DNA of 63,912 nucleotides, filler included, from Folioceros fuciformis (Eukaryota): assembly GCA_049999805.1 (NCBI GenBank). It is 13 parts of 13 records of this genome, joined end to end, with 100 filler letters (N's around TTAATTAATTAA, not from the genome) between each part and the next. Parts side by side here need not be neighbours in the genome. Positions count along the whole stretch, not along the records: positions 5,811 to 13,610 come from JBNGIO010001317.1; 12 more parts are not named here. One strand, written 5' to 3'. The notes under the pieces were generated by a model that saw only the letters and a list, made by a program, of their open reading frames with translations, made no database searches and had not been told where the DNA came from. The position numbers were made by a program, and so were the translations under genes. Shown here in pieces: positions 3,326 through 30,509 of the stretch. Position 1 is the first letter of the stretch. Every line of letters begins with the position of its first letter.

Positions 3326-4822
3326 CTACACCCTAACTCTGTAATCGGCTTCCTGGAGGTATGACATGCTGCTATGTTGCTGTTGTTGTTGTTGTTGCTG
3401 CTGCTGCTGCTGCTGCTGAGCCAGCTCCGACAGTTCCTTTTGCCTTCGCATTTCAAGAATCTTCTTGTGAGAATTGGAATGCTTCTCGTTCACATAGCCC
3501 GGACTCCCAGCAGGCCTGTACTCGGGCAGCAGCCTGCCAGACTTGTACCTCACTCCGCAGGCGTTGCACAATGTCTTGGGTCCCATGGGCCCTGTTCTCC
3601 ACTGCGGGGTGCGCTGTGTTTGACAATGCATGCACCTCCTGGGCTGCATCACATCCTGCCCCTTCTTGCCGCCCCCGCACTTCTTGTACGTCTGTGTCTG
3701 TTTCCGAACCGACAACGACTCCTCTCCGTCAACATCACCTTCATCCTCCTCCTCCTCCTCCTCCTCCTCTTCTTGATCAGACGAAAACCTGTCCGTATCA
3801 CCATACAATACAGGCGACAGAGCGCGGCCCGGGCTGCGGCTGCTGCCCTTGCCCACCAACTCGCACCTCTTAATGCTCTTGTTGTGGGAGTAGGACTCCA
3901 GCGTGTCCCCCGAGGAAGACGAAGACAGAATGGTCATTGACGTCCACGCCCGCTGACCTCCTCGAGACCTCTTGGTCCGGGGCCGTCCACGCACAGACAG
4001 CTCAGGGTACTCGCTCGTCGCCCTTCCCGAACTCGCGCTGCTCTCCAACACCGAATTCGGGCTCCCGCTTCGGAATTGCTCCTTGTTCGAGCTCGCCTCT
4101 ACTTGCTTCTCATGCTTGTTGTTGCTTTGGCTCTGACAGCCGAACGCGCTGCCGGTACCCACATTTCTGAGCGTCTCACAGCTGGCGGATAGGGGGCCAA
4201 ATGTTTCTTCGTGCATTAAGTTGGAGAGCCACTCCAACTCCTGTAGGTCATCACACTGCCAGACCACGCACCACCAACAACCACTCTAAGCAAACCAACT
4301 CCACCTCACCCTTCTCTTTCTCCCAAGCAATACCAACTTTCAAGCCCTTGTTTCCAGACTCAACACACAGCAAAACACTCAGGGAAGGAAGCAAGGAAAC
4401 AAGGATGAGCCATCAAGAAGGAATGGAATGACATACAATGGAATGACATATTCACAAGGAAAGTGGACGGGACGAGACGGGACGGTGCTTACAGGCACAC
4501 ACAAGTCGTCAGAGCCCTTGCGAGTGTCCTCGTCTAAAACATTGGAGTATCTGCATCTGTCACCGGTTCCGGCACCCGACGAGGTGCAACTCACTGTCTC
4601 AATAGTGGACAGGGAGGACTCACCGGTGTCGTCCGACAATTGCATCCCAATGGGACCGGCGATGTCCTCGTTGGAGAAATCCAGCAAGTCATCTACCTGA
4701 AACGACATTTCGGCAATGCTACTCCCCTCGAACTCTGCTGCTGCTGCTGCCTTGCTAACCTGCCTTTTCATTTCAGCAGCGTAGAGCGTGGTGGAGACAT
4801 CCGCGCCACCGCCAAGAGCCAT
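3326..4822 (-). CDS. GATA: Class A GATA zinc-finger transcription factor, about 419 aa; exons 4822-4493 and 4255-3326, intron 4492-4256
   Basis: C-x2-C-x18-C-x2-C finger [52 protein letters not shown]-terminal VDDLLDFS and [15 protein letters not shown] motifs joined in frame by a GTAAG...CAG phase-0 intron; poly-E and poly-Q tracts. Confidence 0.95.
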
Positions 4823-5710: not shown

Positions 5711-5810
5711 NNNNNNNNNNNNNNNNNNNNNNNNNNNNNNNNNNNNNNNNNNNNTTAATTAATTAANNNNNNNNNNNNNNNNNNNNNNNNNNNNNNNNNN
5801 NNNNNNNNNN
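5711..5810. other. Artificial contig linker N44-TTAATTAATTAA-N44; also at about 13611, 15796, 19964, 22789, 36984, 45642, 49536, 51378, 54088, 61203, 62778
   Basis: Identical 100-bp block with a six-frame stop cassette, 12 times. Confidence 0.97.
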
Positions 5811-5997
5811 CTTTCCCTTCCTTTCCCTTCCTTTCCCTTCCTTTCCCTTCCTTTCCCTTCCTTTCCCTTCCTTTCCCTTCCTTTCCCTTCCTTTCCCTTC
5901 CTTTCCCTTCCTTTCCCTTCCTTTCCCTTCCTTTCCCTTCCTTTCCCTTCCTTTCCCTTCCTTTCCCTTCCTTTCCCTTCCTTTCCCTTCCTTTCCC
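5811..5997. repeat. (CTTTCCCTTC)n decamer pyrimidine tract
   Basis: About 18 perfect units next to a gap, upstream of the GATA gene. Confidence 0.95.
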
Positions 5998-6229
5998 ATT
6001 TCCCCGTTTCCCCGTTTCCCTCCCCTCCTTTCCCTTCTGCGCTTTGATCTCAGGTGCTCAATGAGTGGACAATTCAGCAGATCCAAATCCAGGAGGTTTG
6101 GAGGTTACAACGACAGTCCGACTGTGCAGGGTGGAGCTTTTAAAAGCGAAGGAGTCATGGGAGTGAAGAGGTGGAATGCAATTGGGAGTGCTTCTTGCAT
6201 GGCAAGCACCTCGAGGGAGAGAAGGAGGA

Positions 6230-6468
6230 GATCAAGTGACTCTCCATTCAAGAGAGTCGGCCGGAAATCGACGTACGGGGAGGAAATCACAAGCTGGAGT
6301 GGGAACATGAGTAGTAGGAGCGGAAGGGCTGCTGCTGCCTCTGGAAGAGGAGGAGAAGGTCAAGTGACTCTCCATTGAGGAGAGTAGGTCGGAAATCAAC
6401 GTACGTGGAGGAAATCACAAGTTGGAGTGGGAATGTGACCAACAAGAGCGGGAGGGCTGTTGCTGCTG
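6230..6468. repeat. Diverged direct repeat, period about 129 bp, 2 copies
   Basis: tcaagtgactctccatt...ggaaatcacaag..ggagtgggaa recurs at about 6231 and 6360. Confidence 0.8.
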
Positions 6469-7943
6469 CTGTAGTTCGTGATTCTTGTTACACAAATCAA
6501 CAGTCTGTGGGGAACTCATCTTAGGTGTGGAGGTGGAAGCTGCGGAGGCCTACGGAAGCCCAATGTGTCAGCAAAAAGTTGACAATGTTCATATTTGCTC
6601 TATTGCACGCAGATGGCATCACGATGTAGCCAGGGAGGAGCATGGATGGTGGTCATTGGGTTCTTGGACATGCCTGAAGGGCTGCGGGGTTGTAGGGCTG
6701 CGGGGTTGAAGGGCTGTGTTGCTCCTACCGCAACCTCACCTTCTGCTCATGCTCTCAAGTCATGGAGGCTAATGCAATCGACTAGATTGCAACTTACCGT
6801 CAATTTTAAGCGTAATGGAGGAGGAGGGGGGCATCGCAAATCTTTAGAGGTGTTGGAGGTGAACCACGAAAGGCAAGGCAAGGCCAGGTACCAACCTGGT
6901 TGCGTGAGCATGCTTCCACCTGCAAGAGGCCTGCACTTCGATGGTGGGTGGTGTTGTTAACTCTTGCTGAGTGCTCAGCAGGATTTGCCTTGTCCTTCAT
7001 AGCCTTCGCTAAATGGTTGGAAGTGCAATCATCTTAGACATATCTCCCTCCCAGGAATATTTTACACGACTGCTTTATTACATGGGATCATAGCTTTGAT
7101 GTAGGTAGGAGAGATTCGTTCTTGTGTTGCCAACATGGGTGGTTCGATTGTTCACGCATGTGTGTGATTGTTTGCATGTCTACAAGACTGTGGAAGGGTG
7201 TACACCAGTGCATGTTAGTCTTAGCTGTTCAACAGTTTGCCAAGGGCATATTATATTAGCCATACTAAGGCCCAAAAATAGAAGGCAAAGCATGTCTCAA
7301 CGATAGTTCTGGTTAGAAACGGTGTACAAACAATGTCATCTCGAAAACGAAGGAACACAAGCAACCTGTAAAAAGGATCTTGGGCCCATTATGTCTCAGC
7401 TTCACGAGGGTCTCACGCACCTCACGTACGAAGCCGGTGTGTCCAGAAATGGCACAACAGCTGGCCGTAGGGCATTTCGACTCTTCAAATCTTTGCGATA
7501 AAAGTTGGCCGCACACTTAAGACTTTCTCCAGCCACGAGATCCCCCACACGATTGCATTGTATGTATGCAACTTGTAGTTGCTTCAGAATCTGCCAACCT
7601 AATGTGTTTGTATTGAAATGTCCAAGCCGTGGGATCTAGAGGTTGAGTGGGCACTCCATCAAAACACAAGCACGGTGCAAAGCGTGCTTGCCTTAGGGTT
7701 TAAGCAAAATGGTTGTTGAAGCTTAAACCTAGTTTCATGGGTTGAACATGGGTTCATGGCTTAGACTAGGAGGTGGCAAAAGTGGGCAATACGAGTACGG
7801 GCAATCGCGGTATGTGATTTCCTGTACAAAGAGATGGGTGAAGAAAGATGCATGGCGGAGGATGGCGATGCCATGCCACGGGGGATTACACACTGGAGAA
7901 GCATTTATTGGATCGGAGATTGAGACGCAGGCGAGATGGATTA

Positions 7944-8312
7944 TGTAAGAACCTACTCCAGTCAGGAATGTACTCCGCATATTCGACCAAAATGGGTAGA
8001 ACATTCGATCCGCCATGAGCACATGACCCAACATATGGCTTATTGAGCACCACAAACAACTTATGGCTTATTGAACACTGCTCCTAAAAACTGCAAGGAA
8101 CTTTCTTAAACCCTAGAACTTGGAGAGGAAGCATGCCCATGGAATTGCTACTAATTGCAGAATCGAGCTTTATAAAAGCATCAATTAATTAAATAAAAAG
8201 GAAAGTAAAGTATCCTTTAAATACAAAATTGTATAGTGACTTTTGGGTTAAGTATTTAACCTCTAATTTAGCAGCTAGGGTATAAACTATGTTAGGTTTC
8301 TTACTCCTAACA
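7944..8312 (-). mobile_element. Putative 3' LTR of copia element A (TGTTAG...CTTACA)
   Basis: Starts immediately after the purine tract AGTGGGAG (8320-8313, - strand); imperfect terminal inverted ends; distal boundary inferred. Confidence 0.65.
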
Positions 8313-8569
8313 CTCCCACTAAACCCACATGGTTTATACAGCTAGGTATTTGTACTTCCGGCCATCATGCACTGTTAAGCACCAACAACTCTTAGTAATC
8401 GTGGCGTCCTTCCAGCGTACAGAACATGTAGCTCCTGAACGTCTTTGCTTATATGCTGAGCTCCCTCCTTGTTCAGCAAGTCGATTGCGTGTGTAGGCTC
8501 AAAGATGAAGACAAGCTCTGGAGCATCTCTCAGCGCCAAGACCCTGTTCAAGATTAGCAGCACAGCGAC

Positions 8570-9304
8570 ATGAGGAGCCCATTCAGCACTGGAGGAAGTG
8601 AAGTACGCGATTGGTCATCTGTAAGCGGCTTTGCTCTGCGAGCAGTTGAGCCAATAACAGAAGTTCTGCCTCTTAATGAGCGTCCACCAGTGGGGGCTCC
8701 GCCAGCAGCTCCGGTCACTGTTGAGTTAGAGTCCTTCGAGTTTGAGCCAAACATGACAAACATCGACCCAGTCGCCAATACCACAGACGAAGTGACAGAT
8801 GCTGTGGAGAGCTCCCTCCATCATCAAGCTAAAGATGGAGAGCAAACTCCCACTATTTCTGTACTTGAGCAGCAGGTTGCTGGTGTTATGGCAACCTTGA
8901 CTGAGATGGAGGCCCTGCTAGATACAAGGAGAGCTGAAGTGACCAGACAGCAAGCAACCCTAGTCGAGGAAACCGTGAATAGAGCTGTAGCTACCGCCGA
9001 CAGAACCATTAGCGACATAGAAGCCAGCAGAGCTGGAACAAACTGTGACTGCAACGTATGTGCTCATAGGTGCCGTCTGTGCCCTCTGTGTGGGAAAAAG
9101 CTGTACCAGGTATGGTTTTTTTTTTTTTTTTTTCTTCTACCTAACCTTGTTCCATGCTATAGTGGTGACTAAATCCAAGCTTTATGCTTCATCCACCAGT
9201 TACACACGTACAGTGTTTTAATCTAAGACCTGACCTATCTTTTACAGGGTGGCTCAAAGAAGCACAAAGTTGCTTCTCGTCACAGCAGTGGCAAAGGCCA
9301 CTAG
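8570..9304 (+). CDS. Antisense accessory gene inside copia A 3' region; exons 8570-9109 and 9248-9304, about 198 aa; coiled coil, Cys cluster and basic tail
   Basis: 180 open codons, then CAG|GTATG, T-rich intron, CTGAC branch-like motif and TTTACAG|; exon 2 reads GGSKKHKVASRHSSGKGH*; motif CDCNVCAHRCRLCPLC. Confidence 0.6.
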
Positions 9305-9369
9305 GATAAAGAAACAATGTGTGGACAACATTGTGCTTCAACTTTAGCCACAACACCTGCCTAGGATAG

Positions 9370-12300
9370 TCAGTTTGTTTTTATAGGGTAGCTGAACTCT
9401 CTCAGTCCTAGGGCCACCATATGCTGGAAGTGTTTGGCCTTTGGGAGTCCTTTTGTGAGTATGTCTGTAGTATTAAGGTGAGTGCTGATGTACTGAACTT
9501 TAATAGCTCCTCGTTCTGCTACATCCCTAATATAATGGGGATAGAGCTCAATATGCTTTGTTCGAGCGTGAAAATGGGGATTAGATACGAGAGCTATAGC
9601 CCTCATATTGTCACAATGCAGCAAGGTTGGTCCTATCTGTGTTTGATTCACTGATTCCAAAAATTGCCTTTGCCATTCATCTTCCTTGCAAGCATCTGTA
9701 AGCGCCTGGTACTCAGCCTCAGTGGACGAAAGAGAGAGTGAAGTTTGCTTTTTGCAACTCCAACTGACAGTGCCGAAGGCCAACAAACAACAATACGCTG
9801 ACAGGCTCTTCCTAATATTAGCATCGAACGCCCAATCGGCATCAGTGAATGAGATAAGTTCAAGCCAACAAGTTGCTCCCACTGCTTGTATATTGTATCC
9901 CGTAAGACGTTGTACCCTTGAAATAGCGGTAGATCCTTTTAACAACTGCCCAGTGCTATCCGCCAAGTGACTTAAGAAATTGGGACACCATAGACACAGA
10001 GTAACTGATATCTGGTCTTGTCTAGTTTGCAAGATATATCAAACAGCTAACTGCCTTTGCATGCAGTACAGCCTGCATGTCCTCAACCTCTTGTGCACTC
10101 TGAGGAGACATGGCAGATGTTAACTTTTCCCCCGCTGCAGAGGGAGTTGACACAGACTTAGCCCCATCCAGATAAAAGCTCTTCAGTATCTCTTTTAAGT
10201 ATTTGGTTTGATGAAGGGTTATCTGACCATGCGATCTGTGTCGCAGAATTTGAATGCCAAGACAAACTGGAGATCTCCCTGATCCGTCATTTCGAACTCT
10301 TGGCGCAGCATAACTTTTACTTCTTCAAGCTGATCCTTATTGTTACTGAGAAGAACGCAGTCATCAACGTAGAGGGCCAGGATAAAAAACAAAGGACCAA
10401 GGGCAAGATAGAAACATTGGTATCAGCAGGAGACTGCTGAAAACCTACCTTCCGTAAGTACTTCATAATTCTTTTGTACCAAGCTCAAGAAGATTGTTTA
10501 AGACCATAAATGGTCTTCAGCAACTTGCAGACCTTGCTTGCTGTGTTGGGACTTATGAAACCTTGAGGCTGCTCCATATTCAGGGTTTCCTCTAATTCTC
10601 CATGCAGGAACGCAGTACAGACATCCATTTGCTGTACTTCAAGATCATATTCTGCTGCCATAGCCAACAGGATGCAAATGGAGGATGGTTTAACCATTGG
10701 TGAAAAAGTATCACCATAGTCTATACCAGGTATCTAACTGAAGCCCCTAGCAACTAACCTGGACTTATATCGAGAAATGGTCCCATCCGCCTTAAGTTTA
10801 GTTTTGAAGACCCACTTGCACCTAATGGGTTTTCTGCCTTCAGGTAAGTCCACGGGTTCCCAAGTATTATTTTTTATAAGGGATGCATACTCTTCATTGA
10901 TGGATGTTCTCCAATGAGAACCATCAGGACCGTTAATCGCTTCACTATATGTTTGTGGATCAGGGCGAACTTCAGACACATTAAAATCAAACACATGTGC
11001 TCCTTGCCTAAAGTCCAATGCTTGGTAAGGAGGTTCAATCCACTGCTCATGAGGTCGTCTGTCACGTGCAGGGTATCTTGATTCTACGGTGACCGGTTCA
11101 TGAACAGGTGCTCCCACTTCTTGGACAGCAGGAAGATCACCATCTGGAATCTCTGCAACTTCGTCAAGATCGGTCCGTGAGCCAGTAGCCTCCGACTGTC
11201 CATCATGATCATGAAGCAAACCCTGATTTGTAGGAGGATCTGATGCAATCTCGTCACCATCAAAAACGGCATCCTCAACAGGTAATGAGCAATCGTCATC
11301 AGAATCAGGGTAATTAACTGTTGGTGGTGTAATAACTAATGAGGGAGAAACTGCTGCACATTCAGCTGGAATAGATGCTTCAGTGAGCAGTTTAAACCCT
11401 GGATTGTCTTCATCATCAGCCAGGATAGGTAGGTTGGTACCATTAATTTTAGCTGTACTCTTACGAGGGGATGAAAGTTCATCAAAAGTTACACTTCGAG
11501 CTAGTAACACTCTTCTGGTTGAAGGCTCATATAGCTTATATGCTTTCGATACTTCAGAATAACCAAGAAACAGCAGGGGCCTAGCCCTGTTGTCTAACTT
11601 GCGTTGTTTCCGTTTAGGAACATAAGCATACGCTATGGAGCCAAACACTCGCATGTGCAGAAGGCTTGGTTTTTTCTTCCAGAAAACCTCGTCAGGAGTT
11701 TTACCAGGTACAGAAGTAGTCAAAATCCGATTAAGTATGTAGGCAGCTATTGTGAGGGCTTCAGCCCAATATTGTTTGGGCAATCCTACCCATCCAAGCA
11801 TACTCCTAGTCGTACCCATTAGAGTCTGATTCTTACATTCAGCCACTCCATTTTGTTGCTATGTGTAGGGGACTGAAAGCTGGCGTATTATTCTATGAGT
11901 CTCAAACAACTTGTTATACTAGTGACCCATGAACTCTCCGCCATTATCAGTACGAAAGCATTTCACCAAGTTGCTAGTCTGTCTTTGTACCTTAGACATC
12001 CAAGATTCAATATACCCGAAAGCGTCACTCTTCAGGCGAAGTGGGTACACCCATGTGTACCTTGAGTAGTCATCTGTTAAGGTGAGATAATACTCTGCCC
12101 CACCTAGTGACTTTATCTGCAGCTTACCTGCAATGTCCGCATGGACAAGTTCTAAAACTGCCTGAGCTCTTTGTGCCTGTTTATTCCTGAAGGGTAGCTC
12201 CTTCTGTTTAGACATAATACAAGACTGACAAATAGGAAGATGCTTGAACCATGAGGGCAATTTGTCCCTAAATCAGTCCAAAGAGGCCATAAGATTCAAA

Positions 12301-13610
12301 TTATCCTTGTTGACATGTCCAAGCTGAGCATGCCACAAACTTGCTTCAGACACCGAAGAGGTAACAAACACTGCTGGGTTTGTAGTCAAGTTCAGTTGAT
12401 ATAGTTCGTTAACAAATTGTCCCTGAGCAATGCACCTTCCAGGTCTGGACAAGTCATAAGTGCAGCAATGACCTTGCTCAAAGGAAAGACCATATTTTCC
12501 AGACTAAGTGGCAGCGCGAACAGATAACAAGTTCTTCGACATAGCTGGCACATATAGAACATCTTCCAGCAAGATTTCAGATGCATTAGGCAAGGTAATG
12601 GAGACTGAACCTACTCCTCGTACGTCTACTCCCCTAGAGTCCCCCACGTATATTGACTGTGGTGCTACCTCCGTGATCAGTGTGGCAAACAGATTCTTGT
12701 TGTTACACACATGAGACGTGGCCCCGAGTCAATGAACCAAGAGTAGGAAACTTCAACAGAGGATGATAAACAAACTGTTACAATTAAAACAGTCGAGCTA
12801 CTCTTATGTGAAGCCGATCCCTTGTCCTCGGCAACAACATGTGCCTCAAAATGAGGATCCTTCTTAGGTTCTCCTGCCTTTTTCTTGCGACAGTCCCACT
12901 CCCAATGGCCAGGGATCTGACACCAATGGCAAACTCCTTGACGTTTGCTGGAGGGGGTTGAAGAAGCAAAGATGCTCTCAGTTGGAGTCTGGTAAGATCT
13001 CTTTTCTTTCCCCTTTCCCTTAACAAACGGTTTTCCCTTAGCTGCAAATAAAACCTTCTCACCTCTAGAGCAAGAACCCTGACCTGGCTTGTGTCTACTG
13101 GCCTCCTCTTGCAGAAGAGCCCCGACAACGACATTCAGATTTAGAGAATACGGTTTATTTACAGCAGCAGTGGCATATGCAGCAGCGAGGGCCGAGTTTT
13201 GTCCTGAAATGAATGTCTGATAGGATGGAGGTAAGGCAGTCAAAGTTGGGCGACCATTTGAACCTCGCTAATCTTGGCTCCTAGCGTAGACAATTGTGCT
13301 CGCATCAGCCTCAGCTTGGTGACACCGGGTCCAACAAGTTCTCCTTCTCGAATCCTAAACGAGTGGAAATCACTCCTGACATTCATTAAGCTACAAACAT
13401 TCTGCACTTCGTATGCGTCCTTGAGTTGAGTCCAGACCTCAGCTGCTGTAGCCAGGAACTCAACCTCAATGGCAGTCGTGGCATCCAACCCAGGAAATAA
13501 GATGGCAAATGCCACTTTGTTTCCTTTATCCCATTTCAATTTGTCATCAGCTGTAGGTTGAACAACTGATGTAGCTGGTACACTGTATGGATTAGGGATA
13601 TTGCCATCAA
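9370..13610 (-). mobile_element. Ty1/copia element A gag-pol, disrupted by frameshifts and stops; 5' end lost in gap
   Basis: Domain order gag (CHWCQIPGHWEWDC knuckle), protease WFIDSG, pre-integrase LWHAQLGH, integrase LVHAD..RTDNGGEF, RT YKSRLVARG/MDVCTAFLHG/YGLKQS/YVDD, RNase H DADWA..TEAEY..RTKHI. Confidence 0.96.
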
Positions 13611-13710
13611 NNNNNNNNNNNNNNNNNNNNNNNNNNNNNNNNNNNNNNNNNNNNTTAATTAATTAANNNNNNNNNNNNNNNNNNNNNNNNNNNNNNNNNN
13701 NNNNNNNNNN

Positions 13711-14626
13711 AGAATACAGCGTTTTGCTCTTCATCGGGATCGAGACTCCGAGGTTGGTTATTTTTCGTTCTACGTGGGGAGGATGGAGGACGTGCAATTC
13801 TTGGCCTCCATTGGTAAATCCGAGGGAGGACGATATTGTAAGCATCAGGAAGTGTTGCTCAGGAGGAAGATTATACTGCCTCTTCAGAGGCAAAGACTCG
13901 ATCGGTGCTGGTGGCGCCAGCTTAGAGATCTGGAGATTCGACCTGGAAGCTCAGGAGTGGACCTTCATTGACGACGTTTCCTGTGAAAGTCTGGACATAG
14001 AAGGCCAGTTCTTAAGCATGACGCTGGCTGGATGTGGCGACAGGATCTTCCTAGTTGTCACAGGCAGTGAAAGAAAACTTGTGGCGGACTTACTTGCTCC
14101 ATGTGCGGCGATTGTCGGCACACTTACCGGAAGAATGTGGATATCGGACATGTTTCATAGAAGGGGGATTGCAACCATCACAAGCAGCCAAAGAGTAGAG
14201 ATAATGGACAGATTTGGAGCACCGTGGGCCCTCGGACCTACCGAAAAAGTGTACAAGACGGACTCAGATGGTAGACCGATAAATAATCTTGTTCGAGTTT
14301 TCGAGTTGTTCGGGCATACCTCGTCCACCCATCACCAGCAGCCCAGATGGGAACGGATGTCGGATATGCCACCTGAACTTCTAGGCAGCATGCGCACAAC
14401 AAGACGCTGCCACCCTCGGTTCTACAAAGACCTGACCATTATGGATGCTGATGAACGCGCTATCTATTTCAGCCGAGATGAGTACTTCCCTTCTCAAACC
14501 ATAGTGATGTTTGACCATATCCACCAGATTTGGGAATTGTTGGAAGAGATCCCGACCAAGGGCATGCCTGCATGGTCATATGTCGAGGTCCTCACTTTCA
14601 AGCCAAACAAAGATGTCCAGCCATAA
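13711..14626 (+). CDS. F-box protein paralogue 1, C-terminal about 300 aa; 5' part missing in gap
   Basis: Colinear with the C-terminal part of 16094-17572 (IWRFD.EAQEWTF, GQFLSMTLAGCGDRIF, QQPRWERMSDMP, TFKPNKD.QP). Confidence 0.85.
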
Positions 14627-15355: not shown

Positions 15356-16093
15356 AATATAGGGCGAGGAAACAAATAAAACAAAGACTAAACCCTATGA
15401 TTGCTTGTGAATTAATTTATTGTGCCGGGATTCTCACCGGGCCCGTGAAGTTGTATCATGTGTGGGACTTATTATGTGGTGTGTGCCTAGCTTCAATTTC
15501 TCCTTCGCAGATAGAATTCCACGAATTTGTCGTAATACCTCCAGTCACCCCGAATTCGAAGAAGGTGGAACGCCCAAGAAACCAGGGCTGTGAAAACATT
15601 TTGCGGATCGTTTCCACTCCTGGATCTCCATTGTCCTGGAGCAAGACGTCGAGTGGTCTGAAGCGTGCTGCTGATATTTCTCACACACAAGTGCAAGATA
15701 CATGCAGACTGCCTTCAGTGTCACCTGATCGGAATCTCACATTGAAGAAGGTGGAACGCCAAAGCAACCACGGCTGGAACGGATACTTTGCCTGTNNNNN
15801 NNNNNNNNNNNNNNNNNNNNNNNNNNNNNNNNNNNNNNNTTAATTAATTAANNNNNNNNNNNNNNNNNNNNNNNNNNNNNNNNNNNNNNNNNNNNGGTGG
15901 AACGCCAAAGCAACCACGGCTGGAACGGATACTTTGCCTGTCCATTCCCCTGCCCGATCTCGATTCTCCAGGAGAATCGAGATCGAGAGATGTATGTAAC
16001 ACTGTGCTCTGCCTGCAGAAGGTCCTCGGCAGACAGAGAAAAGGGTTTGTTACAACTTGATACGGTCTGCCGACATTTTCAGCGTGCACCGGC

Positions 16094-17572
16094 ATGATGG
16101 ATGGTGGGGGCGAGTTGGTGGAGAAGAATTGCTTGCAAGATTTGAATAACGGGATATTCGATGTTTTCTCGGAACACATTCTACCGTGTTTGCGCTATTC
16201 CCACCTCCTATCCGCAGAACTGGTGTGTAAGCGTTGGCGAGAGGCATGTAGCTCGTGTAAAGTGCGGACGACTGGTACCTGCTTGGTTAAGTATTCCAGT
16301 TTCTTGCCTGCGATAGTTTTGAGGACAGTAAGAGCAGGACATGTTTATGGTAGTAATGACATTCTACAAATCCACAATCCTCTCTACACAAGATGGTTGC
16401 GACAGCGTGTACCAACGTGGCCTGCTGTTGGTCCATGGGACGGGTACGACCTGTTGGAAGCAGGGAATAACGGGCTTTTGGTTTTGTGGAGATGTGTGCG
16501 GGTTTTAGGGAGAAACAGGTTCCAACGGTACCGGCATTACGTGGAGGTGGTTAACCCGCTGTCGCCACATACAAAACGAAGATTGCCCTTTTGGGAAGAG
16601 AATGATTCACAACTGAAACTACTGAAGATGGTTCAGTCGGAGGACGACCGCAACGCAGCCCAAGAATACAGCATTCTGCTCTTCATCGGGATCGTGACTC
16701 CGAGGATGGTCATTTTTCGTTCTAGGTGGGGAGAATGGAGGACGTGCAATTCTTGGCCTACACTGGTAAACCCGAGGCGGAACTGTATTCTAAGCATCAG
16801 GAAGTGTTGCTCGGGAGGAAAATTATACTGCCTCTTCAGAGGCAGAACCACGACAATTGTTGGTAACGCCAGCATGTACATCTGGAGATTCGATGTTGAG
16901 GCTCAGGAGTGGACCTTCATTCATGAAATTTCCTCTGAAAATCTGGACATTGAAGGCCAGTTTTTAAGCATGACGCTGGCTGGGTGTGGCGATAGGATCT
17001 TCGTAGTTGTCAAAGGCAGCGAAAGAAAACTGGTGACGGACTTAGTTGCTACGCCGACGGCCAGAACACGCAGCGAAAGAATATGGATATCGGACATACT
17101 TGGTGAAAGGGGGATCGTGACGGTCACAGGCAGCCAAATTGTACAGATAACGGACTTACATGGGAGACCGCTGGCCCTCGGACGCAGCAAAAGAGTGTAT
17201 AAGACGGACTCAGCTGGTAAACCGAACATCAGTTTCTTGCGAGTTTTGGAGTTGGTAGGGCATAATTTGGACACCCAGCACCAGCAGCCGAGATGGGAAC
17301 GGATGTCGGATATGCCAGATGAGCTCTTACGTAACCTGCGCACATCCAGATCCTTCTACGCTCGGTTCTGCAAAGACTCCAGCGTTCTGGATGCTGATGA
17401 ACGCGCTATCTACTTCACCCAAGGTGAGATCACCTCTTCTCCAAACATAGTGATGTTCGACTATATCCATGGGTTTTGGGAATGGTTGGGAGAGATCCCA
17501 ACCAGCGACATGCCTAGAGCGCCATTGGTTGGGCTTATCACTTTCAAGCCAAACAAAGATGCCCAACCATAG
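16094..17572 (+). CDS. Intronless F-box protein, 492 aa, with beta-propeller-like (kelch/FBA-like) C-terminus
   Basis: N-terminal F-box pattern L...IFDVFSEHILPCLRYSHLLSAELVCKRWRE; NGLLVL and VVNPLS...RLP motifs typical of plant F-box proteins; W-terminated blades. Confidence 0.88.
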   Translation: MMDGGGELVEKNCLQDLNNGIFDVFSEHILPCLRYSHLLSAELVCKRWREACSSCKVRTTGTCLVKYSSFLPAIVLRTVRAGHVYGSNDILQIHNPLYTRWLRQRVPTWPAVGPWDGYDLLEAGNNGLLVLWRCVRVLGRNRFQRYRHYVEVVNPLSPHTKRRLPFWEENDSQLKLLKMVQSEDDRNAAQEYSILLFIGIVTPRMVIFRSRWGEWRTCNSWPTLVNPRRNCILSIRKCCSGGKLYCLFRGRTTTIVGNASMYIWRFDVEAQEWTFIHEISSENLDIEGQFLSMTLAGCGDRIFVVVKGSERKLVTDLVATPTARTRSERIWISDILGERGIVTVTGSQIVQITDLHGRPLALGRSKRVYKTDSAGKPNISFLRVLELVGHNLDTQHQQPRWERMSDMPDELLRNLRTSRSFYARFCKDSSVLDADERAIYFTQGEITSSPNIVMFDYIHGFWEWLGEIPTSDMPRAPLVGLITFKPNKDAQP

Positions 17573-21189: not shown

Positions 21190-22720
21190 ATACAAGCGGC
21201 CTGTCCGCAGCCTTGAGAAAGCATGAATGAGTGGAACTTGTGATACCACTCCCTGGGTGCCTGCTTCAAACCATAAAGGCTCTTCTTTAACCTGCACACC
21301 AGATTCTCTTTGCCCTTCTCAATGAAACCCTCTAGTTGCTGCATGTGTACCTCTTCTTGGAGATCACCATGCAGAAATGCCGGCTTCACATCCATTTGGA
21401 CAAGTTCCATGTCATTCCTCACAACCAGAGCAAGCACACGTCGCAAAGTGGTCATTTTGACAACTGGTGAGAAAATCTCATCAAAGTCAATACCTTGCTG
21501 TTGCTTAAAACCCTTAGCAACCAATCAACTGGCGAAAAAATCTCATCAAAGTCAATACTTTGCTGTTGCTTTAAACCCTTAGCAACCCTTTTCTTGACTT
21601 GGGAGCCAACTTGTCCCGAAACTCCTTCGGAACATGGTAGTATGCCTCGCAGCCAAACACTCGTAGATGCTTGTATGACGGCTTCTTTCCAGACCACATC
21701 TCCTCTGGAACCTGCTCATCCACAGCCTTATTAGGAGATCTGTTAATAAGATGCACCGTAGTAACCGCTGCTTCTACCCAAAATCCGTTAGGCAATCCAG
21801 AGTTTGACAACAAACTACGCATCCTCTCCTAGATGGTCTTGTTCATCCGTTCAACCACACCATTCTAGGGAGGAGTATACAGGGCAGTCAATTCTCTCAT
21901 AATTCCCTTGGAATCACAGAATGACTGGAAAGCCTTCGAAACATACTCTCCTCCATTGTCCGTCCTTAGACACTTTAGTTGGAGGCCAGACTGCCACAAG
22001 GGTGACGAATTTCTGAAACACTGTGAGAACACCATCCTTTTTCCTCAAAGGATAAACCCACACCTTGCATGAGAAATCATCTATGAAAGTGACAAAATAG
22101 GATGCACCGCCTAATGATACATTGGGCATAGGTCCACAAATGTCACTGTGAACCAATTCAAGAGCTTTACTTTTGTGTTTACCTCTTGCTCCATGTGGTG
22201 ACTTCGTTTGTTTCCTATACAAACAGTGCTCACACACGAACGAAATTGGAGAAGTCAAAAGAAAGGACGTAACCAAAACGAGATAAGATCTTCATTCCTT
22301 TTTGAGACATATGTCTTAACCGACAATGCCACAAGGAAACACTTGGCTATTCCATTATACAAATCACATGATCCTTGATAGTGGTTACCTGAAGTGAGTA
22401 CAAAGTGCCACACTTTGATCCACGAGCTAACACAAGAGAACCTTTGGAGATCTTCCAAGAATTATCCCCAAACCAACAGTGGTAGCCAGCGTCATCCAAC
22501 TGCCTTGCGCTAATCATGCTTTTTGTCAACTTTGGAACATGCCTAACATCCTTTAGTTGGAATGAAGATCCGTTGTCAAACTTCAGCTACACATCACCAA
22601 CACCTGCAATCTCGCATGCGTAGTTATTTCAAAGCCGAACATATCCTTTCCTAGTAGCATCATAGGTGCTAAACCACTCCCTATGCGGTGTAACATGGAC
22701 AGATGCTCCAGAGTCAATTT
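21190..22720 (-). mobile_element. Ty1/copia element B pol remnant (protease, integrase, partial RT) with internal deletion
   Basis: IDSGASVHVTPHREWF; LELVHSDICGP..FIDDFS; HLRVFGCEAY; RT GIDFDEIFSPVVK, MDVKPAFLHG, LYGLKQAPREWY. Confidence 0.93.
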
Positions 22721-24392: not shown

Positions 24393-26470
24393 GAACTGAC
24401 CCTCGCCTCAATAGCTAGGCTCCAGGGGCATTCTTTCTCCAATTCCAGCCCAGCGAGATTGGCAAATTCCCAGAAATTGGTGGATTCTGCAACGCCCGTG
24501 CCCAAACAGGCTGGAATTGGGAACGGGGAGCAGATTAATGCTCACATTCAGGAGAAATTTGACGAGCTATCCCAAGAATCAAACTCAGGCGAGCGCTCAC
24601 ATGGGAGGTTGATTTGCAGCCCTAGCATGCACCAGATTGGGCCCGCAAAAGGGCGCCCCAGATCGCCCGCTGTAGGGCATGCTAGATTGCTTGTGGAGGG
24701 GCGCGTCGGATCCCCTTCAAAGGGGCACACCTGTGCCCAAACGGGTCAACAGCTTGAGTTGTCATTTCGATGAAGGGGGTGTTTTCCCCCTCCCAATGGG
24801 TGTGAACCTGAGTTTTTCGAGCACCGGTTGCGAACCGGTTCTGCCCGGAGTAGGTCCACACTTGGGCCCCATCTTCTACTACTTCTTGCCTGACAGCCAG
24901 CGAGTTCTAGAGAATTGTCACGTGAAGATCGAGCCCGCCTTGACTGTAGAGTTATTAAAGCCAAATGTGCTTAGACTAATGTGTTTAGTCTAAGATTAGA
25001 GTCTAGATAAGTATCATTAGTTTAGATTAGCTTAAGCTAGTCTGTAGGAAGCTTCTTGCGCAGCTTCCTATGCGCTTCTTGTGAAAGCTTCCTTGGGAGC
25101 TCTTCTAGAGGGTATAAATACCCCCTTGAGCTCCCTTGCTATTGAGACTCTGTGTGAGAGTGTGACCTCTCTTTCTCCTCTCCTCCTTGCCTCCTCCTTC
25201 ACCATGCGGCTCCTCTAGCAATCCTTCATCGACACCCCTGCCTCTCATCGACCACGCCTCGGCACCTTTGGACTAGCTCCAACTCACTGCTGAGCATTTT
25301 GTGGACCTTGTCTATTGACTTTGCCGCCTAGTAGAGCCTGTCCAAGATAGTTCACCAGCCCCTTAACTAGTAGGACGTTGGTGGCACTTGTGCTAGGGGG
25401 ACACTAGAACAAGGTTTATGACCTCAAGTTATAGAGACATGGTTAATCAGCTTGTTGAACACTTTAATTCGCTCTCAATTAACCCTCCAGCTTCCATGGC
25501 CACCAGCACTATGGTCCTAGTACCCACAGGATCTATGCCAACATTCACCGACCATATAAAGGAAAATGACCGCTTTAATGGTCAGCATTACCCAGTATGG
25601 CGAGTTCGAATGAAGTCAATTGTGATCGACCGTGGTGTTTGGAAAATTGTTGATGGGAGCCACCCCAAGCCTGACCCCACTGCAACTCCTACTCCTTCTG
25701 CAGCCGACATTGAGAATTGGGAATACTTAAACGGAATTGCAGTGGCGCTCCTCATCTCTGGCTTAGACTTAAGCTTAGTGCCGAGCGTCGAGTTCCTCAC
25801 AGAAGCCTCTTCCATTTGGAATCAACTTTCCAACACTTACAATTGAATAATGTCCTAACACTCTACAGCGTCAGACAAGAATTCAACGCACTTAAGATGA
25901 AGGAGACGGACACAATCGCAGCACATACCTCCAAGTTTAGACAACTTAAAGGGCAGTTGGCCTCGCTTGGGTCACTAATGATCGAGACTGACGTTGCTGC
26001 TCAACTGCTCATGAGTTTGCCGGCCTCTTACCAACACTTTGTCACTAGCCTGATGCTAGTGTCAACCCGTGGCATCTCTGGATTCACCTCTTCTTTGACA
26101 GTGGAGGAAATCATCGGTGCCCTGTACCAGCACAAACAGAGTCGCCTCAATTCTGCAGCAGGGTCCAAGCCCAAGGCAGATAAGACACTTGCTATTCGTT
26201 TTAAGCCTAGGAAAATCAAGGGGAAGCAAGCCACTACCTCCAAGGGTGAGTCGACCTCAGCTCCACCACGCCGAGTAGGTAATTGCAATTGGTGCGGTAC
26301 ACCTGGTCACTTGGCACGAGAGTGCCGCAAGAAAAAGGCTGGAGAGCCACAAAAGCCTGGCCTGTGCTAGACCGCAAGTGTAGCTGTTAAAGGAAAAATA
26401 GTATATGAGGAGACGAAGACCATCAAGATTCTCGCCGTCTGCCTTAATACTTAGCCACAGCAAGTGTGGA
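24393..26470 (+). mobile_element. Copia family C copy 1: 5' region and gag, frameshifted near 25845, truncated before protease, interrupted by a solo LTR
   Basis: RFNGQHYPVWRVRM gag; CNWCGTPGHLAREC knuckle; homologous to 27500-28870. Confidence 0.88.
24945..25228 (+). mobile_element. Solo LTR (284 bp) with TSD TTGAC/TCGAC
   Basis: TGTAG...CTTCA termini, TATAAATA box; inverted copy at 38653-38934. Confidence 0.85.
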
Positions 26471-27456
26471 GGAAATATTGTATCCAGGGGTACCGCGAGG
26501 TCCACACCAACCCTCTATGTTGTTATAGTAATAGGATTCAATCCCAAGGGAATGATTTGTGTCAAGTAACACAAGTTTCTTCCAAAAATCAGTTCTAACC
26601 TAGGTCAGGCTTCACCTACCCCTAGTTCCTCTACCTACAGGTTCCACTACCACGACCCCCAAGTGGCCTAGCTACCACCACTCGACTCTACGACTCGAAG
26701 ACTCGCTCAACTACCATGGTAGGGGTCTCTACAAACATCTTGGCAGAGGTTCCTTGCATAGGTCTGGAGTGTTGTTGACCCTAAACCCTAAACCCTCTCC
26801 CACGGCATGCCTCGCCTTGATCTGATCCGCTCCCTCCCGACGCCTGCAGATGCCACATTTGCAAATTTGCAGAAGAAGAGGGGGCATAAGGCAGGAGGCA
26901 CACATAGCCTGCCCAAGGACACCCCTTTTGAAGCCAGATCTTGACAACATCTTTCGATGTTGGATGTTGAGAACTCTGGAGAGCAGCGCTAGTGTTTCCC
27001 GAGAATATATTTTCGATAATAGCTCAAAGTTTTAAATACAAAAAATATGTCATTTCATCCTAAAACAGCTACCACATTTCTAAATCATGATATATATTAA
27101 CTCATTCCAACTTATCCCAAGTGACGTGGTTAGTATAACTAGATCTAACTTATTAGGGTTTTTGACAGATCTGAGCAAAATTGGTCAAGATTTGAGAAGG
27201 AGTTGAGTGCATATGCCAGATTGTAGGACGATGGCCAATTCACAGCGAATTTCGATCTGAAATTTGGCAGATCTGGAGCCATCCCACAACAGGGGGAGGC
27301 GCATCAACCAAGAGCACTAGCATGGGCAGCCGATCGCACTCGCAACCTACTATAGGCGCTAGAGCAAGAGCCTGCTGTCACAGTGGAGCGCTGCGACATA
27401 GGAGTGCACCGCGGGCAAGCGGAGCCTAGTGCTCTCGCAAAGCGGTGACCGGGCCG

Positions 27457-27515
27457 AAACGACAACTTAAGTTGTCGTTTTGCAGGCGAAACGTTGCCCT
27501 GGGCAACTTAAGTTG
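27457..27515. repeat. 24-bp perfect palindrome AAACGACAACTT|AAGTTGTCGTTT plus second core CAACTTAAGTTG
   Basis: Direct reading at 27457-27480 and 27504-27515. Confidence 0.85.
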
Positions 27516-29332
27516 TCGGTTCAGCGTTGAACCGGTTTGGGCCGCCCCAACCAATGTGAATACGGTTTTTTTAGACACCAGTTCTGAACTAGTTCTCCCT
27601 AGCCCCATTTCACACCAGCATTTGGACCCTGGGAGTTTTGAACCACCAACAGTATATACGCAAGTGAAGATTGAGCCGTCTTCGCCTATCCTACAACCGG
27701 AATCTTCGGCCTTTGCGGATCAAACTTGTCTTCTGTGGGATCAACTCGAGCACAGAAACTCAGTGTTTGGTGGACCTAGTCTTTCGTCTTTGTCATATAG
27801 CAAAATCAGAGGTGGATAACTTGCAAATTTCTGACCAATCAGACACTAAGTGGTCCTAAGCACTTGAGTTTATGACCACAACCTACAATTCCTTTGTGGA
27901 CCACCTTATACAATAGTTTAACTCACTCATTAGACTCCGCAACAGCTTTGGGGAACAACACTTCGTCCACCTTCACAGGTGCAGGCCCCGTCTACACCAA
28001 TCATATGAAGGAAAAAGGACGATTCAACAGCCAGCACTTCCCGGTGTGGTGTGTGCACATGAAGTCCATCTCGATAGGTTGATCCCAACCCTTTTGCCAC
28101 TCCACCCCCGCCAGTCGCCGTCGTAGAGAGATGGGAATATTTGAATGAGATCGCAATATCTCTCCTCATTTGCGGACTTGACTCGAGTCTGGTGCCCAGC
28201 GTGGAGTTCCTCACGGAGGCCTCTGCAATCTGGGACCAGCTATCAAACACGTACAATGTTAACAATGTTCTAACCTTGTATGGTGTAAGGCAGGAATTCA
28301 ACTCCTTAAGAATGAAGGGGACAAATGCGATCTCTGCTCATACCTTGAAGTTCAAACGGTTGCGAGGGTAGCTCACCTCCCTTGGCTCCACCATGTCAAA
28401 GACCGATATCGCTGCACAATTGTTGATGAGCTTACCAGCCTCTAACGAAAACTTTGTTACCAGCCTGATGTTGGTATCTACCCACGGTAGGCACGACTCC
28501 CACCTTAATGGTGGAGGACATTATCGGCCCTCTGTATCAGCAGGAGCAGAGCCACCTTAGGTTTGCAGGAGGGTCCAAGCCCAAGGCAAAGAGGGCGTTT
28601 TCCACCCTCTTCAAACTTGGGAGGAATTCGAAGGGCAAGGCGAACTTCACCCCTAAAGATGACTCAATCTCTGCCCCTCCTCGTCGAGCTGGAAACTACA
28701 ATTGGTGCGGAGCTGCCGGCCATTGGGCACGAGAGTGCCCCAAGAAAGAGGCCGGAGAGCCGTAGAAGGCTGACTTGAGACAGGCAGCCAATATTGCAGT
28801 TAAGGGGAACTCCAACACAGCGGAGACAAAAACCGAAAAGATACTTACGATTTGCCTCAACACACAGTTGCATCAGGATGCGGGGTGGTATCTGGACAGT
28901 GGAGCCACCGCCCACATATGCAATGATCATACTCTATTCACCAAGCTGGATACTCGTCCTCTCAGGGAAAGGGTGTTACTCGGTGACGAACATAGTAGAT
29001 CTAGCTTGCCAATCATGGGACAAGGCACTTGTAAACTTCGGTCGGTTTAGTGCTTACCTTGGAGCTTGTGCTTCTCGTCCCACAAATGGGCAAGAACCTG
29101 GTCTCCATGACTCAGCTGCTGAAGCAAGGCAATCTTAAGATGCTTGCTTCAAGGGGGTCATGCTACTTTTTCAAGACTACAAATCCTGACTTGTGCCTCT
29201 TCATTGTCGTGCCTCAAGACAGCCTGTACAGGCCCTCATTAGCCTTCAGAGGGAGCGCATCAAAGAGGAGTGTCACACTCCATGGGAGATAGCCTCCACC
29301 ACTGGTTAGGTTACGTTCAACTTAAGAGGGAG
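27500..29332 (+). mobile_element. Copia family C copy 2: decayed gag and protease, followed directly by a PPT
   Basis: YNWCGAAGHWAREC knuckle, WYLDSGATAHIC protease; AAGAGGGAG at 29324-29332. Confidence 0.88.
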
Positions 29333-29918
29333 TGTTACGGAATGGATAATCTGCCCGTAACCCTACCGACCAGCTAGTTACCGTAGACCATAATTAATAG
29401 TGTTTAATAATTACGAACGGGTGTGCCTCTTTGGAAGAGACACCCAGTAACACTAGTTAAGACACACTTTGTATACACCTTTCGCAGATGAAACACGAAA
29501 TATCTTTCTGAGCATGGCGTCCTGATCATGCTAGATTAGATGGAATCCTACTGCTAGGATTTTGACAGTTAATCTGGCATTTACCGTTTCTATGGGTTAA
29601 TATGGTATTTATCGTTTCTATGGGTTAATATGGTATTTACCATTTATTTAATCTAGTATTTACCATTTCTATGAGTTAATTTGGTATTTACCGTTTCTAT
29701 GGGTTGATCTGGAACTTACTGTTTCTACTTGTTAGTAAATCTACTTTTATACGATCTGTTGCACGCTGCAGTTTTTGTCCCGTTGGATTGCTAGCACTTG
29801 CGCTATGGCAAGACGAAGTTTGCGTGGGTACCCTATTTGATGAGTGAGTTGTTGTGACACTTTGGTTTTTCTCTTGCATAGGCATCTTCCTTTTATGAGG
29901 TATGTCAGCATGACAACA
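29333..29918 (+). mobile_element. Putative 3' LTR (TGTTAC...ACAACA) containing a 28-bp minisatellite at 29571-29730
   Basis: Follows the PPT; unit aatatggtatttaccgtttctatgggtt about 6 times; right boundary inferred. Confidence 0.6.
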
Positions 29919-30509
29919 TCGCCACATGCAATACCTGCACCGATCAGCAAGTTAGAGCAACAACAGCCACAAAACCACAATCTTGTTTGTCGGTTTCCAA
30001 GAAAGAAGAGAAAAAGGTAATTTCATATTTTATTTTATTTTCTGGTTATTTACTACTAATAAATTACTTGGCTTAATTATTTCACTTTTATTTGGTCGGG
30101 CTGATTATTAGTGGTCATAAATATGTTATTTATGAGCTCAAGTTTGGTTTTTAAGCTAGAATCGTTTTGGCTATCTAGTGTTTAGTATAGAAAATACTTA
30201 AGTTACCAATGGTTATTTTCTTAGCTTAATCTCACCCCTATCTCATGGTGAGTGGGAGTGATAAAATAAATACTTATTTAGGGCACTATTCATTTGGGTA
30301 GTGTAAATCTCTAGAATTAATCATGTAAAGTTCTAGGGCTAGAAGTAGTTTCTTAGGAAGTTACTTAAGTGGTTAGTGGTCAAATCAGCTACAACTACCT
30401 ATGACTGTTTGTACTACACAAACACTTGCTCCAAACAATGTAATCAATGCTAAGTCCATCTTGGAGCTAAAACTGGTCTTGTCTCTTCTTCCTCAACTCC
30501 TATCTACTT

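Follow-up and report, generated by a model that had tools for sequence, protein, structure and literature searches.

An antisense open reading frame behind pol of a degenerate Ty1/copia element, with a possible intron and a predicted helical product

The locus and its carrier element

The window, i.e. the whole stretch of 63,912 nucleotides of DNA from Folioceros fuciformis that was analysed, carries on its minus strand a retrotransposon with the domain order gag, protease barrel, pre-integrase, integrase, SH3-like, RT and RNase H (Table 1). Pfam matches were obtained on this strand from 13608 down to 10219 for Retrotran_gag_2, Pol_BBD, gag_pre-integrs, rve (24.6 bits, under its cut-off of 32.6), SH3_retrovirus and RVT_2. 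For the RNase H part, 1667 relatives were retrieved at E ≤ 1e-10, many with copia-type names, and the best one in the protein library is 51% identical. This domain order and the RNase H relatives bear out the Ty1/copia carrier proposed in the initial annotation. The pol stop lies at 9372–9370. gag-pol had been described as broken, and at least three frame changes and eight in-frame stops were counted, a lesion density of about 1 per 385 nt. The antisense ORF described below is absent from each of the other copia fragments in the window (21258–22237 and 25714–30993), and an Rfam search of the contig gave zero family matches.

Table 1. Coordinates of the features at the locus (positions along the window)
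Feature	Position	Strand	Basis
Putative 3′ LTR start, TGTTAGG...CCTAACA	8290–8312	−	Adjoins short G-rich purine run; sequence
Leader or possible promoter region of the antisense frame	8313–8569	+	ATGs, in-frame stop
Antisense open frame, proposed exon 1, 180 codons from ATG	8570–9109	+	Translation; shuffles; codon score; AF2
Codons of predicted long helix, residues 96–154	8855–9031	+	AF2 pLDDT 92–98
Cys cluster C-x-C-x2-C-x3-C-x2-C-P-x-C with one His, residues 159–174	9044–9091	+	Sequence; pLDDT 55–68
Proposed 138-nt GT..AG intron	9110–9247	+	Donor CAG/GTATGG, CTGAC 9230–9234, acceptor TTTTACAG/G
Tail of the unspliced frame: 20 codons, with many Phe encoded by the T run, and a stop	9110–9172	+	Translation
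T18CTTCT run, an A-rich purine run on the sense strand of the element	9116–9138	+	Sequence
Proposed exon 2: 18 basic codons and stop TAG (9302–9304)	9248–9304	+	Sequence
Degenerate Ty1/copia gag-pol	9370–13610	−	Pfam domains, frames and stops; truncated within gag, where the contig ends (13610)

The putative edge of the 3′ LTR has as its sole support the motif TGTTAGG at 8312–8306, behind a short purine run. A search for a second LTR copy in the window found none; the contig stops inside gag and is therefore without a 5′ LTR or PBS. CTAACA at 7218–7213 was considered as the LTR end (a 1.1 kb LTR, pairing with TGTTAG at 8312) and was rejected, as the odds of finding this 6-mer there are about even. 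No tandem repeats were found in 8312–9370. Repetition was also seen in the flank, as far down as 6600.

The antisense frame

Past the pol stop of the element, and on the strand opposite to gag-pol, lies the antisense frame. Translation recovered the three parts given in the initial annotation, namely the frame from ATG 8570, the 138-nt GT–AG stretch and the 18 further codons. The plus-strand frame is free of stops over 8558–9172 (204 codons stop to stop) and, without splicing, ends at 9172. An in-frame stop is found at 8555–8557, and upstream ATGs are present at 8329, 8367, 8426, 8453 and 8505. These five upstream ATGs, between 8312 and 8570, argue against translation of an antisense RNA started in the LTR.

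Dinucleotide shuffles of 8313–9369 were used to assess the length of the frame. A length of 204 codons was reached in 2 of 5000 shuffles (P ~0.0004), and an ATG frame of 200 codons in none of 5000. In the shuffle calibration the antisense frame gave 0/1000, as did each of three known coding regions; for two spacers nearby the values were 0.22 and 0.38. The GC content at codon positions 1, 2 and 3 of the frame is 0.61, 0.49 and 0.46, respectively; the third-position value (GC3) is 0.32–0.51 in the element genes, which the frame resembles, and 0.55–0.80 in five host ORFs of the window, which it does not. Codon scores were calculated with tables trained on ~3000 codons only: of the six frames, +1 scored highest with the element-trained table and with the combined one, and a single reverse frame exceeded it with the host-trained table. 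Length, calibration, composition and codon score all support a coding-like behaviour of the antisense frame.

The frame had also been remarked upon as open although gag-pol is broken. Both facts were confirmed; the argument drawn from them carries little weight, because at about one lesion per 385 nt a neutral frame of 600 nt stays intact in ~20% of cases, or about one in five.

Further unexplained frames of ~200 codons occur in the 64-kb window, one of which scored P = 0.07 in the calibration.

Proposed intron and second exon

The proposed intron has GT at 9110 and AG at 9246–9247, with CTGAC 14 nt ahead of the AG, and we take its donor, branch and acceptor to be consensus-like. Its A+T content is 65%, compared with 48% in the frame. 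The open second exon is without statistical weight, since 118 of 296 GT..AG pairs likewise keep at least 15 codons open after joining. A 138-nt intron can reasonably be predicted here, but it does not amount to a finding.

The length of the T18CTTCT run varies in a near-identical contig (record 9, 8872–9373; 3 other letters and 15 gap letters); reads over 9106–9145 are flagged as cut. Among the sequencing runs listed for this stretch there was no RNA run. One run guessed to be RNA gave pieces of 37–56 nt elsewhere and nothing on 8472–9641, and is uninformative on expression.

Predicted protein

The spliced product would have 198 amino acids. Residues 1–65 are acidic and Pro-rich and are predicted to be disordered. 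Helices were modelled at 67–87 and 96–154 by AlphaFold2 (AF2) run without an alignment, the latter comprising 59 residues with pLDDT 92–98, and the opposite-strand frame of the same DNA gave a mean pLDDT of 56 with zero residues at 90 or above. Of the coiled-coil heptad helix named in the initial annotation, the long helix was retained in the model; the heptad periodicity is not significant, the best register having 11 of 17 a/d positions hydrophobic, a value reached by 24% of residue shuffles (P = 0.24). The net charge of the helix region is −4.

The Cys cluster may form a small metal-binding knuckle. Its earlier description as the back half of a RING finger was not borne out: seven candidate ligands fall within 16 residues, and Pfam showed no RING or zinc-finger match, whether with the whole protein or, at E ≤ 10, with its 43-aa tail. 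As modelled, the folded parts of the predicted protein are complete without the proposed intron.

Homology searches

No homologue of the antisense product was found among ~5.8 billion clustered proteins. The sole HMMER match in 1.84 billion representatives, a protein of 1194 aa with 12 tandem repeats (P0001), was rejected as an artefact of summing weak per-repeat matches. Pfam returned sub-threshold noise only (NS1_C, CDK5RAP3, CT398_CC, SWIRM-assoc_1), with no match to TRP28 (PF04195) or SMC, and the best PDB sequence had E = 1.1. The ESM Atlas gave no usable match, with a recognition of 1411, under the level of most known families. Viral contigs yielded nothing for either the ORF or RNase H. 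A metagenome locus sharing the word ELESFEFE was set aside, as the word lies inside a 456-aa ORF that, read from its sequence, looks prokaryotic or phage-like. This lack of homologues counts little, because the libraries are without this copia family, its best RNase H relative being the 51% match given above. A literature search for an antisense protein-coding ORF in copia elements gave general reviews on antisense ORFs (aORFs) only; the available text of Neumann et al. 2019 (PMC6317226), whose supplements may list such ORFs, is silent on the matter.

Further copies of the segment

A second contig, ~83% alike (141–142 other letters and 23 gap letters in 868 nt), covers 8506–9373 and was found in two DNA runs of one sample of the same organism (records 2 and 8). 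It spans the antisense frame plus everything to the pol stop, across the A/T run, so that the segment is not a one-off. The exon differences listed for this copy, at 8736 and 8742, are both residue-changing (Phe to Ser). In a third library of the same sample (record 15), a contig bridges the pol stop (9174–9410). Among the pieces listed, this second contig is the only diverged one over the frame. Diverged contigs over pol are ~88–89% alike (records 3 and 10; 11–12% different), compared with a difference of ~16% plus gaps in the segment, a comparison in which the contigs perhaps come from different element copies. Searches of the window with blastn and tblastn found no other copies of the ORF. 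Read depth was 32–42 in the ORF bins, 45–226 in the pol bins and 10–14 for window-identical contigs in X1; this hints at few copies of the ORF segment, yet such depths are no copy number and were not used as evidence.

Interpretation

The reading that we favour, without calling it probable, is that 8570–9109 together with a short tail is a real additional ORF that encodes a protein and belongs to a low-copy Ty1/copia family in a plant-like genome, lying in the aORF-3R position, i.e. antisense between pol and the putative 3′ LTR. As modelled, its product is most likely an orphan of ~200 aa with a disordered acidic/Pro N-terminal third, a helix of ~60 residues and a C-terminal cluster of six Cys and one His, which probably binds metal. 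Antisense RNA would start from a promoter of its own ~60–250 nt upstream of ATG 8570 and not deep in the LTR, any intron, being antisense, would survive retrotransposition, and the protein, small, helical and metal-binding, would be an adaptor or a regulator in the life cycle of the element itself. Neither the nuclear or anti-silencing function nor the transcription from the 3′ LTR side that the initial annotation put forward gained support. A comparable regulatory role has been proposed for the Grande gene23 and Retand TRP28 proteins (PMC7264820; PMC11963269). The copy in the window, being in a dead element, may itself be a relic.

It is unlikely that the frame, although coding, is a piece of a host gene or of another mobile element behind or beside the copia element, with the second copy arising by segmental duplication. 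Such an origin would fit an LTR edge that rests on one motif, a flank that is repeated down to 6600 and the A18 run of the sense strand (9138–9121), which separates the frame from the end of pol, 230 nt past the pol stop, and might be where two unrelated pieces were joined; it would also fit the single diverged contig over the frame among the pieces listed, as transduced aORFs are known in one or few copies (PMC7264820). It is opposed by the absence of any similar host or transposon protein among the 1.84 billion representatives, by the GC3 of the frame (0.46, against 0.55–0.80 in the five host ORFs) and by the diverged contig, in which the frame is still joined to the end of pol, with the A/T run between them.

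A spacer that encodes no protein at all seems quite unlikely. The region would then be silent or transcribed in antisense, any function would reside in RNA, for example as dsRNA feeding small-RNA silencing, and the ORF would be due to chance, de novo origin or a by-product. The shuffle result (P ~0.0004) and its calibration against spacers and genes, the frame-specific codon signal and the strongly unequal AF2 confidence between the two strands all speak against this. They have to be set against the lack of homologues in the libraries searched, the five ATGs that an RNA starting at the LTR edge, or further out, would carry in its leader, heptads that are not significant, a Cys cluster that is unmatched and of low confidence, and the choice of this frame from a 64-kb window with other unexplained frames of ~200 codons (one with P = 0.07); non-coding antisense RNAs have been documented for retrotransposons (PMC7264820). 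A true coding strand on the minus side, with the plus frame as the open shadow of a decayed env-like or pol-extension ORF, is very improbable: over its 170 codons the minus frame 9063–8554 contains a single stop, and it shares its wobble positions with the plus frame, but its translation is of low complexity (rich in Ser, Thr, Ala, Val and Cys), it falls below frame +1 in the codon test with all three tables (frame −2), and it is interrupted, of low AF2 confidence and without a Pfam or other match.

Returning to a protein-coding additional ORF, we consider a bolder version improbable, in which a copia lineage of under-sampled plants would possess its own intron-bearing antisense gene for a helical, metal-binding protein controlling the transcription or silencing of the element, as a Pseudoviridae counterpart of retroviral antisense genes such as HTLV-1 HBZ. 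Such a gene would be kept through retrotransposition because its intron is invisible on the genomic RNA. At present the material consists of an intact copy, in an element that is dead, and a diverged one; these make a lead and not a result. A coding ORF with a helix and a Cys cluster in ~200 aa would offer a compact test object.

Comparison with known systems

The ending C-x2-C-P-x-C resembles the final pair of ligands found in many C-terminal RINGs, and the C-terminus of the antisense product is similar to the RING finger (C3HC4; Pfam zf-C3HC4) in this respect. RING fingers have eight Cys/His ligands in a cross-brace, whereas six Cys and one His are found here, with no loops between the pairs.

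HTLV-1 HBZ is a spliced antisense product with a leucine zipper. Like HBZ, the present candidate is an antisense gene at the 3′ end of a retroelement, where an intron would be tolerated because splicing does not remove it from the genomic RNA, and in both the product has a long helix (predicted in our case). The two have no sequence or family relation, and here no basic region precedes the helix, whose charge is negative. HBZ has its antisense promoter in the 3′ LTR (PMC7264820), whereas the five upstream ATGs of the present frame speak against an LTR start.

The env-like ORFs of Athila and Bagy2 (gypsy) are likewise extra ORFs in the spacer between pol and the 3′ LTR (PMC7264820). As described in the available text, env-like ORFs are in the sense orientation, larger, often transmembrane and expressed from spliced genomic RNA; the present ORF is antisense, and its modelled helices are only those at 67–87 and 96–154. 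Among copia elements, the SIRE lineage has sense env-like ORFs. Bidirectional transcription with antisense promoters is reported for the copia elements Mdoryco1-1 of apple and AtRE1 of Arabidopsis (cited in PMC7264820), which resemble the present case in being Ty1/copia with antisense transcription (putative in our case); the text available reports antisense promoters for them, as distinct from a conserved protein encoded in antisense.

The aORF-3R class consists of ORFs that lie in antisense orientation in the spacer from pol to the 3′ LTR, with gene23 of maize Grande, rice RIRE2 and ORF4/TRP28 of Silene Retand as examples (PMC7264820; PMC11963269). According to the accessible parts of the same sources, antisense extra genes are widespread in plant LTR retrotransposons, nearly all described cases being in Ty3/gypsy, and function is proven for none. 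One criterion for the class is presence in most copies of a family, with conservation like that of gag-pol (PMC7264820). The known carriers of aORF-3R are Ty3/gypsy elements (Tat/Retand) with spacers of 2.9–6.6 kb, whereas here a Ty1/copia element has a spacer of ~1 kb; aORF-3Rs occur in most copies of large families, some with transcription or nuclear localization, whereas the copy number here appears low. In common with this class, the present ORF lies behind pol, is antisense to gag-pol, extends over a few hundred codons and has no clear cellular similarity; a regulatory or nucleic-acid-binding role is proposed, and for Grande a promoter of its own upstream of the ORF has been reported. If true, a coding antisense ORF in Ty1/copia, possibly with an intron, would widen the aORF class.

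The antisense frame and its setting

The open frame on the strand opposite the Ty1/copia gag-pol (the antisense frame) is tentatively read as an additional ORF, orphan and antisense, carried by a low-copy copia family, in the positional class aORF-3R (additional ORFs antisense to gag-pol, in the stretch from pol to the 3' LTR). The sequence features listed in the initial annotation (frame, GT/CTGAC/AG, 18 further codons, Cys pattern and pol stop) were all found in place. The frame and its carrier element both lie on contig 5811-13610, one of 13 chained in the window by twelve linkers of the form N44-TTAATTAATTAA-N44; since the contigs are separate, genes on either side of a linker need not adjoin in the genome.

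Features of the antisense frame, the carrier element and the window
Feature	Position	Strand	Basis or remark
Start ATG	8570	+	In-frame stop four codons upstream
Open frame, 180 codons	8570-9109	+	Translation
Candidate intron signals	Donor GT 9110; CTGAC 9230-9234; acceptor TTTTACAG ending 9247	+	Sequence
18 further codons, then TAG	TAG 9302-9304	+	198 aa if joined to the 180-codon frame
Read-through without splicing	Across T18 run, stop at 9172	+	Translation
Cys cluster, C-x-C-x2-C-x3-C-x2-C-P-x-C, one His	Residues 159-174	+	Sequence
pol stop	9372-9370	minus	Opposite strand to antisense frame
Retrotran_gag_2, Pol_BBD (protease barrel), gag_pre-integrs, rve, SH3_retrovirus, RVT_2	13608 to 10219	minus	Pfam, in this order
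GATA zinc-finger ORF with poly-Gln run	3326-4285	minus	Host gene
Mem_trans (PIN-like) transporter, at least 2 exons	54678-56356	minus	Host gene
Paralogous long ORFs (families D2-D6)	13711-14626 and 16061-17572	+	DNA 75-85% alike, ~2.95 kb apart, different contigs
Linkers	5711-5810, 13611-13710, 15796-15895 and nine further places		Between contigs

Carrier element and other ORFs

The Ty1/copia element was assigned to the minus strand of the contig with Pfam, the rve match being under the cut-off. At E <= 1e-10 its last ORF (10038-9373) finds 1667 relatives, of which many are annotated as copia-type polyproteins; among the RNase H relatives, the best named ones come mostly from flowering plants. 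The contig end truncates the element inside gag, so that the 5' LTR and PBS are missing. The gag-pol is dead: its 4.24 kb are interrupted by at least three changes of frame and eight in-frame stops. The putative LTR edge at 8312 is placed by the word TGTTAGG, which follows a short run of purines, a second LTR for comparison being missing from the window; CTAACA at 7218-7213 would make the LTR 1.1 kb, with about even odds of occurring by chance. The flank below the putative LTR contains a perfect 10-nt repeat (CTTTCCCTTC, 18.7 copies) at the contig start (5811-5997) and a 128-nt unit (1.9 copies, 6218-6466).

Remnants of further copia elements, only 29-48% identical, were located on neighbouring contigs at 21258-22237 (minus strand) and at 25714-26538, 28502-28930 and 30763-30993 (plus strand), gag among them being confirmed by Pfam. 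No relative of the antisense frame was found in the other copia fragments of the window. Further window ORFs match GATA, Mem_trans (the family containing the PIN auxin carriers) and, weakly, F-box-like in Pfam; the last match (22.5 bits, under the cut-off) is in the longer paralogous ORF, and the shorter one matched no Pfam family. These ORFs and the flowering-plant RNase H relatives make a plant-like host likely. Opposite the Mem_trans gene, long open frames (55113-56039) probably just mirror its GC3-rich coding sequence.

Relatives and a second copy

No homologue of the antisense frame was found among ~5.8 billion clustered proteins (near-length comparison), nor a genuine one among 1.84 billion representatives searched in full with HMMER; PDB sequences and the ESM Atlas gave no similar protein, and viral contigs nothing. 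The sole HMMER match, a 12-fold tandem-repeat protein with summed weak per-repeat matches, was rejected, as was one metagenome-contig locus matching a common eight-residue word within a prokaryote-type ORF. This blank weighs little because the best match to RNase H, the most conserved part of the element, is 51% identical in the same protein library. The copia family of the carrier, and any close family, is missing from the protein libraries.

Comparative evidence was taken from the organism's public DNA runs, which include contigs identical to the window. An 847-nt contig in two runs of one sample spans 8506-9373 and differs from the window there at 141-142 letters, besides 23 gap letters. 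It is a second copy, ~83% alike, comprising the frame, the T-rich stretch, proposed exon 2 (9248-9304) and the spacer to the pol stop; its exon differences among those listed are at 8736 and 8742, both second codon positions, Phe to Ser. A contig of a third library from the same sample bridges the pol stop. The segment is thus joined to the pol end in at least two diverged copies rather than being a one-off. Diverged contigs over pol are ~88-89% alike, against ~83% over the antisense segment; if they belong to the same copy as the diverged spacer contig, the spacer is evolving faster than pol. In one library of that sample, differences over 6600-13610 are almost all C>T (283 places) or G>A (426 places), against 6-52 for each other kind; this is the pattern that bisulfite treatment would give, and the library is a possible source for the methylation state of the element.

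T18 run, candidate intron and transcript start

The T18 run (9116-9138, plus strand) reads as A18 on the element sense strand and comes 230 nt after the pol stop. Reads break at this run, and a near-identical contig (8872-9373) differs from the window chiefly by 15 gap letters, so that the run appears unstable and seems to vary in length among near-identical contigs. Possible readings of it are the U-tract of an intron, a second polypurine tract and the join between two pieces. A junction here, with the pol end on one side and the frame on the other, would fit a captured or adjoining non-element coding piece, segmentally duplicated, which we regard as doubtful; GC at codon positions 1/2/3 of the frame (0.61/0.49/0.46) is like that of the element genes and unlike that of five host ORFs (GC3 0.55-0.80).

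The donor and acceptor of the proposed intron (9110-9247) are the most consensus-like among the GT..AG pairs, and the stretch is T-rich (A+T 65%, against 48% in the frame); the candidate intron rests wholly on these two properties. The open exon 2 adds no information, 118 of the 296 GT..AG pairs (60-400 nt, same stretch) also leaving at least 15 codons open. An antisense RNA starting at or beyond the LTR edge, as initially proposed, would carry five leader ATGs (8329-8505) ahead of 8570, so that a start ~60-250 nt from this ATG is more plausible than one in the LTR.

Coding potential

In 5000 dinucleotide-preserving shuffles of 8313-9369, a 204-codon stop-to-stop frame arose twice in any of the six frames and an ATG frame of 200 codons never. 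Calibration with 1000 shuffles each gave 0 for the antisense frame and for three coding regions already known in the window, 0.22 and 0.38 for two neighbouring spacers, and 0.07 for a separate unexplained 201-codon frame elsewhere in the window. The length of the antisense frame exceeds chance. A small codon-usage model, with a training set of only ~3000 codons, ranked frame +1 above the other five under tables from element genes or from all genes; with a host-only table one reverse frame outscored it. That the frame is open although gag-pol is broken is a weak argument: at ~1 lesion per 385 nt in gag-pol, a neutral 600-nt frame survives in about one case in five. The frame is a single intact copy within a dead element, and an RNA-only or functionless frame is considered unlikely.

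Predicted protein

The AlphaFold2 model, made without an alignment, has disordered residues 1-65, a helix at 67-87, a second at 96-154 (pLDDT 92-98) and a Cys tail with pLDDT of just 55-68. A minus-strand frame of the same DNA, used as control, gave a helix with mean pLDDT 56 and no residue at or above 90; this difference in confidence makes the plus strand the better coding candidate, and a decayed sense-strand ORF is highly improbable. Neither the heptad-like helix nor the RING likeness of the initial annotation was upheld. The best register has 11 of 17 a/d positions hydrophobic, matched by 24% of residue shuffles; Pfam returned no RING or zinc-finger family, the 43-residue tail alone at E <= 10 being likewise blank, and RING loops cannot fit between seven candidate ligands within 16 residues.

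Comparison with known elements

By analogy with the aORF-3R class, the frame would be expressed from a promoter directly upstream, and its product may be a small helical, metal-binding regulator of the element's own cycle. The literature search turned up no account of a copia element with a protein-coding antisense ORF, though supplementary files may list some; for copia, the relevant part of PMC7264820 mentions just antisense promoters, in two elements. As portrayed in parts of PMC7264820 and PMC11963269, the aORF-3R class takes in Grande gene23, RIRE2 and the Retand TRP28 proteins, and almost all known cases are Ty3/gypsy; the products are without similarity to cellular proteins and without proven function, nuclear localisation and DNA binding having been suggested. 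The antisense frame, in contrast, sits in a Ty1/copia element and, if real, would be an aORF-3R unusual for its copia carrier and perhaps also for an intron.
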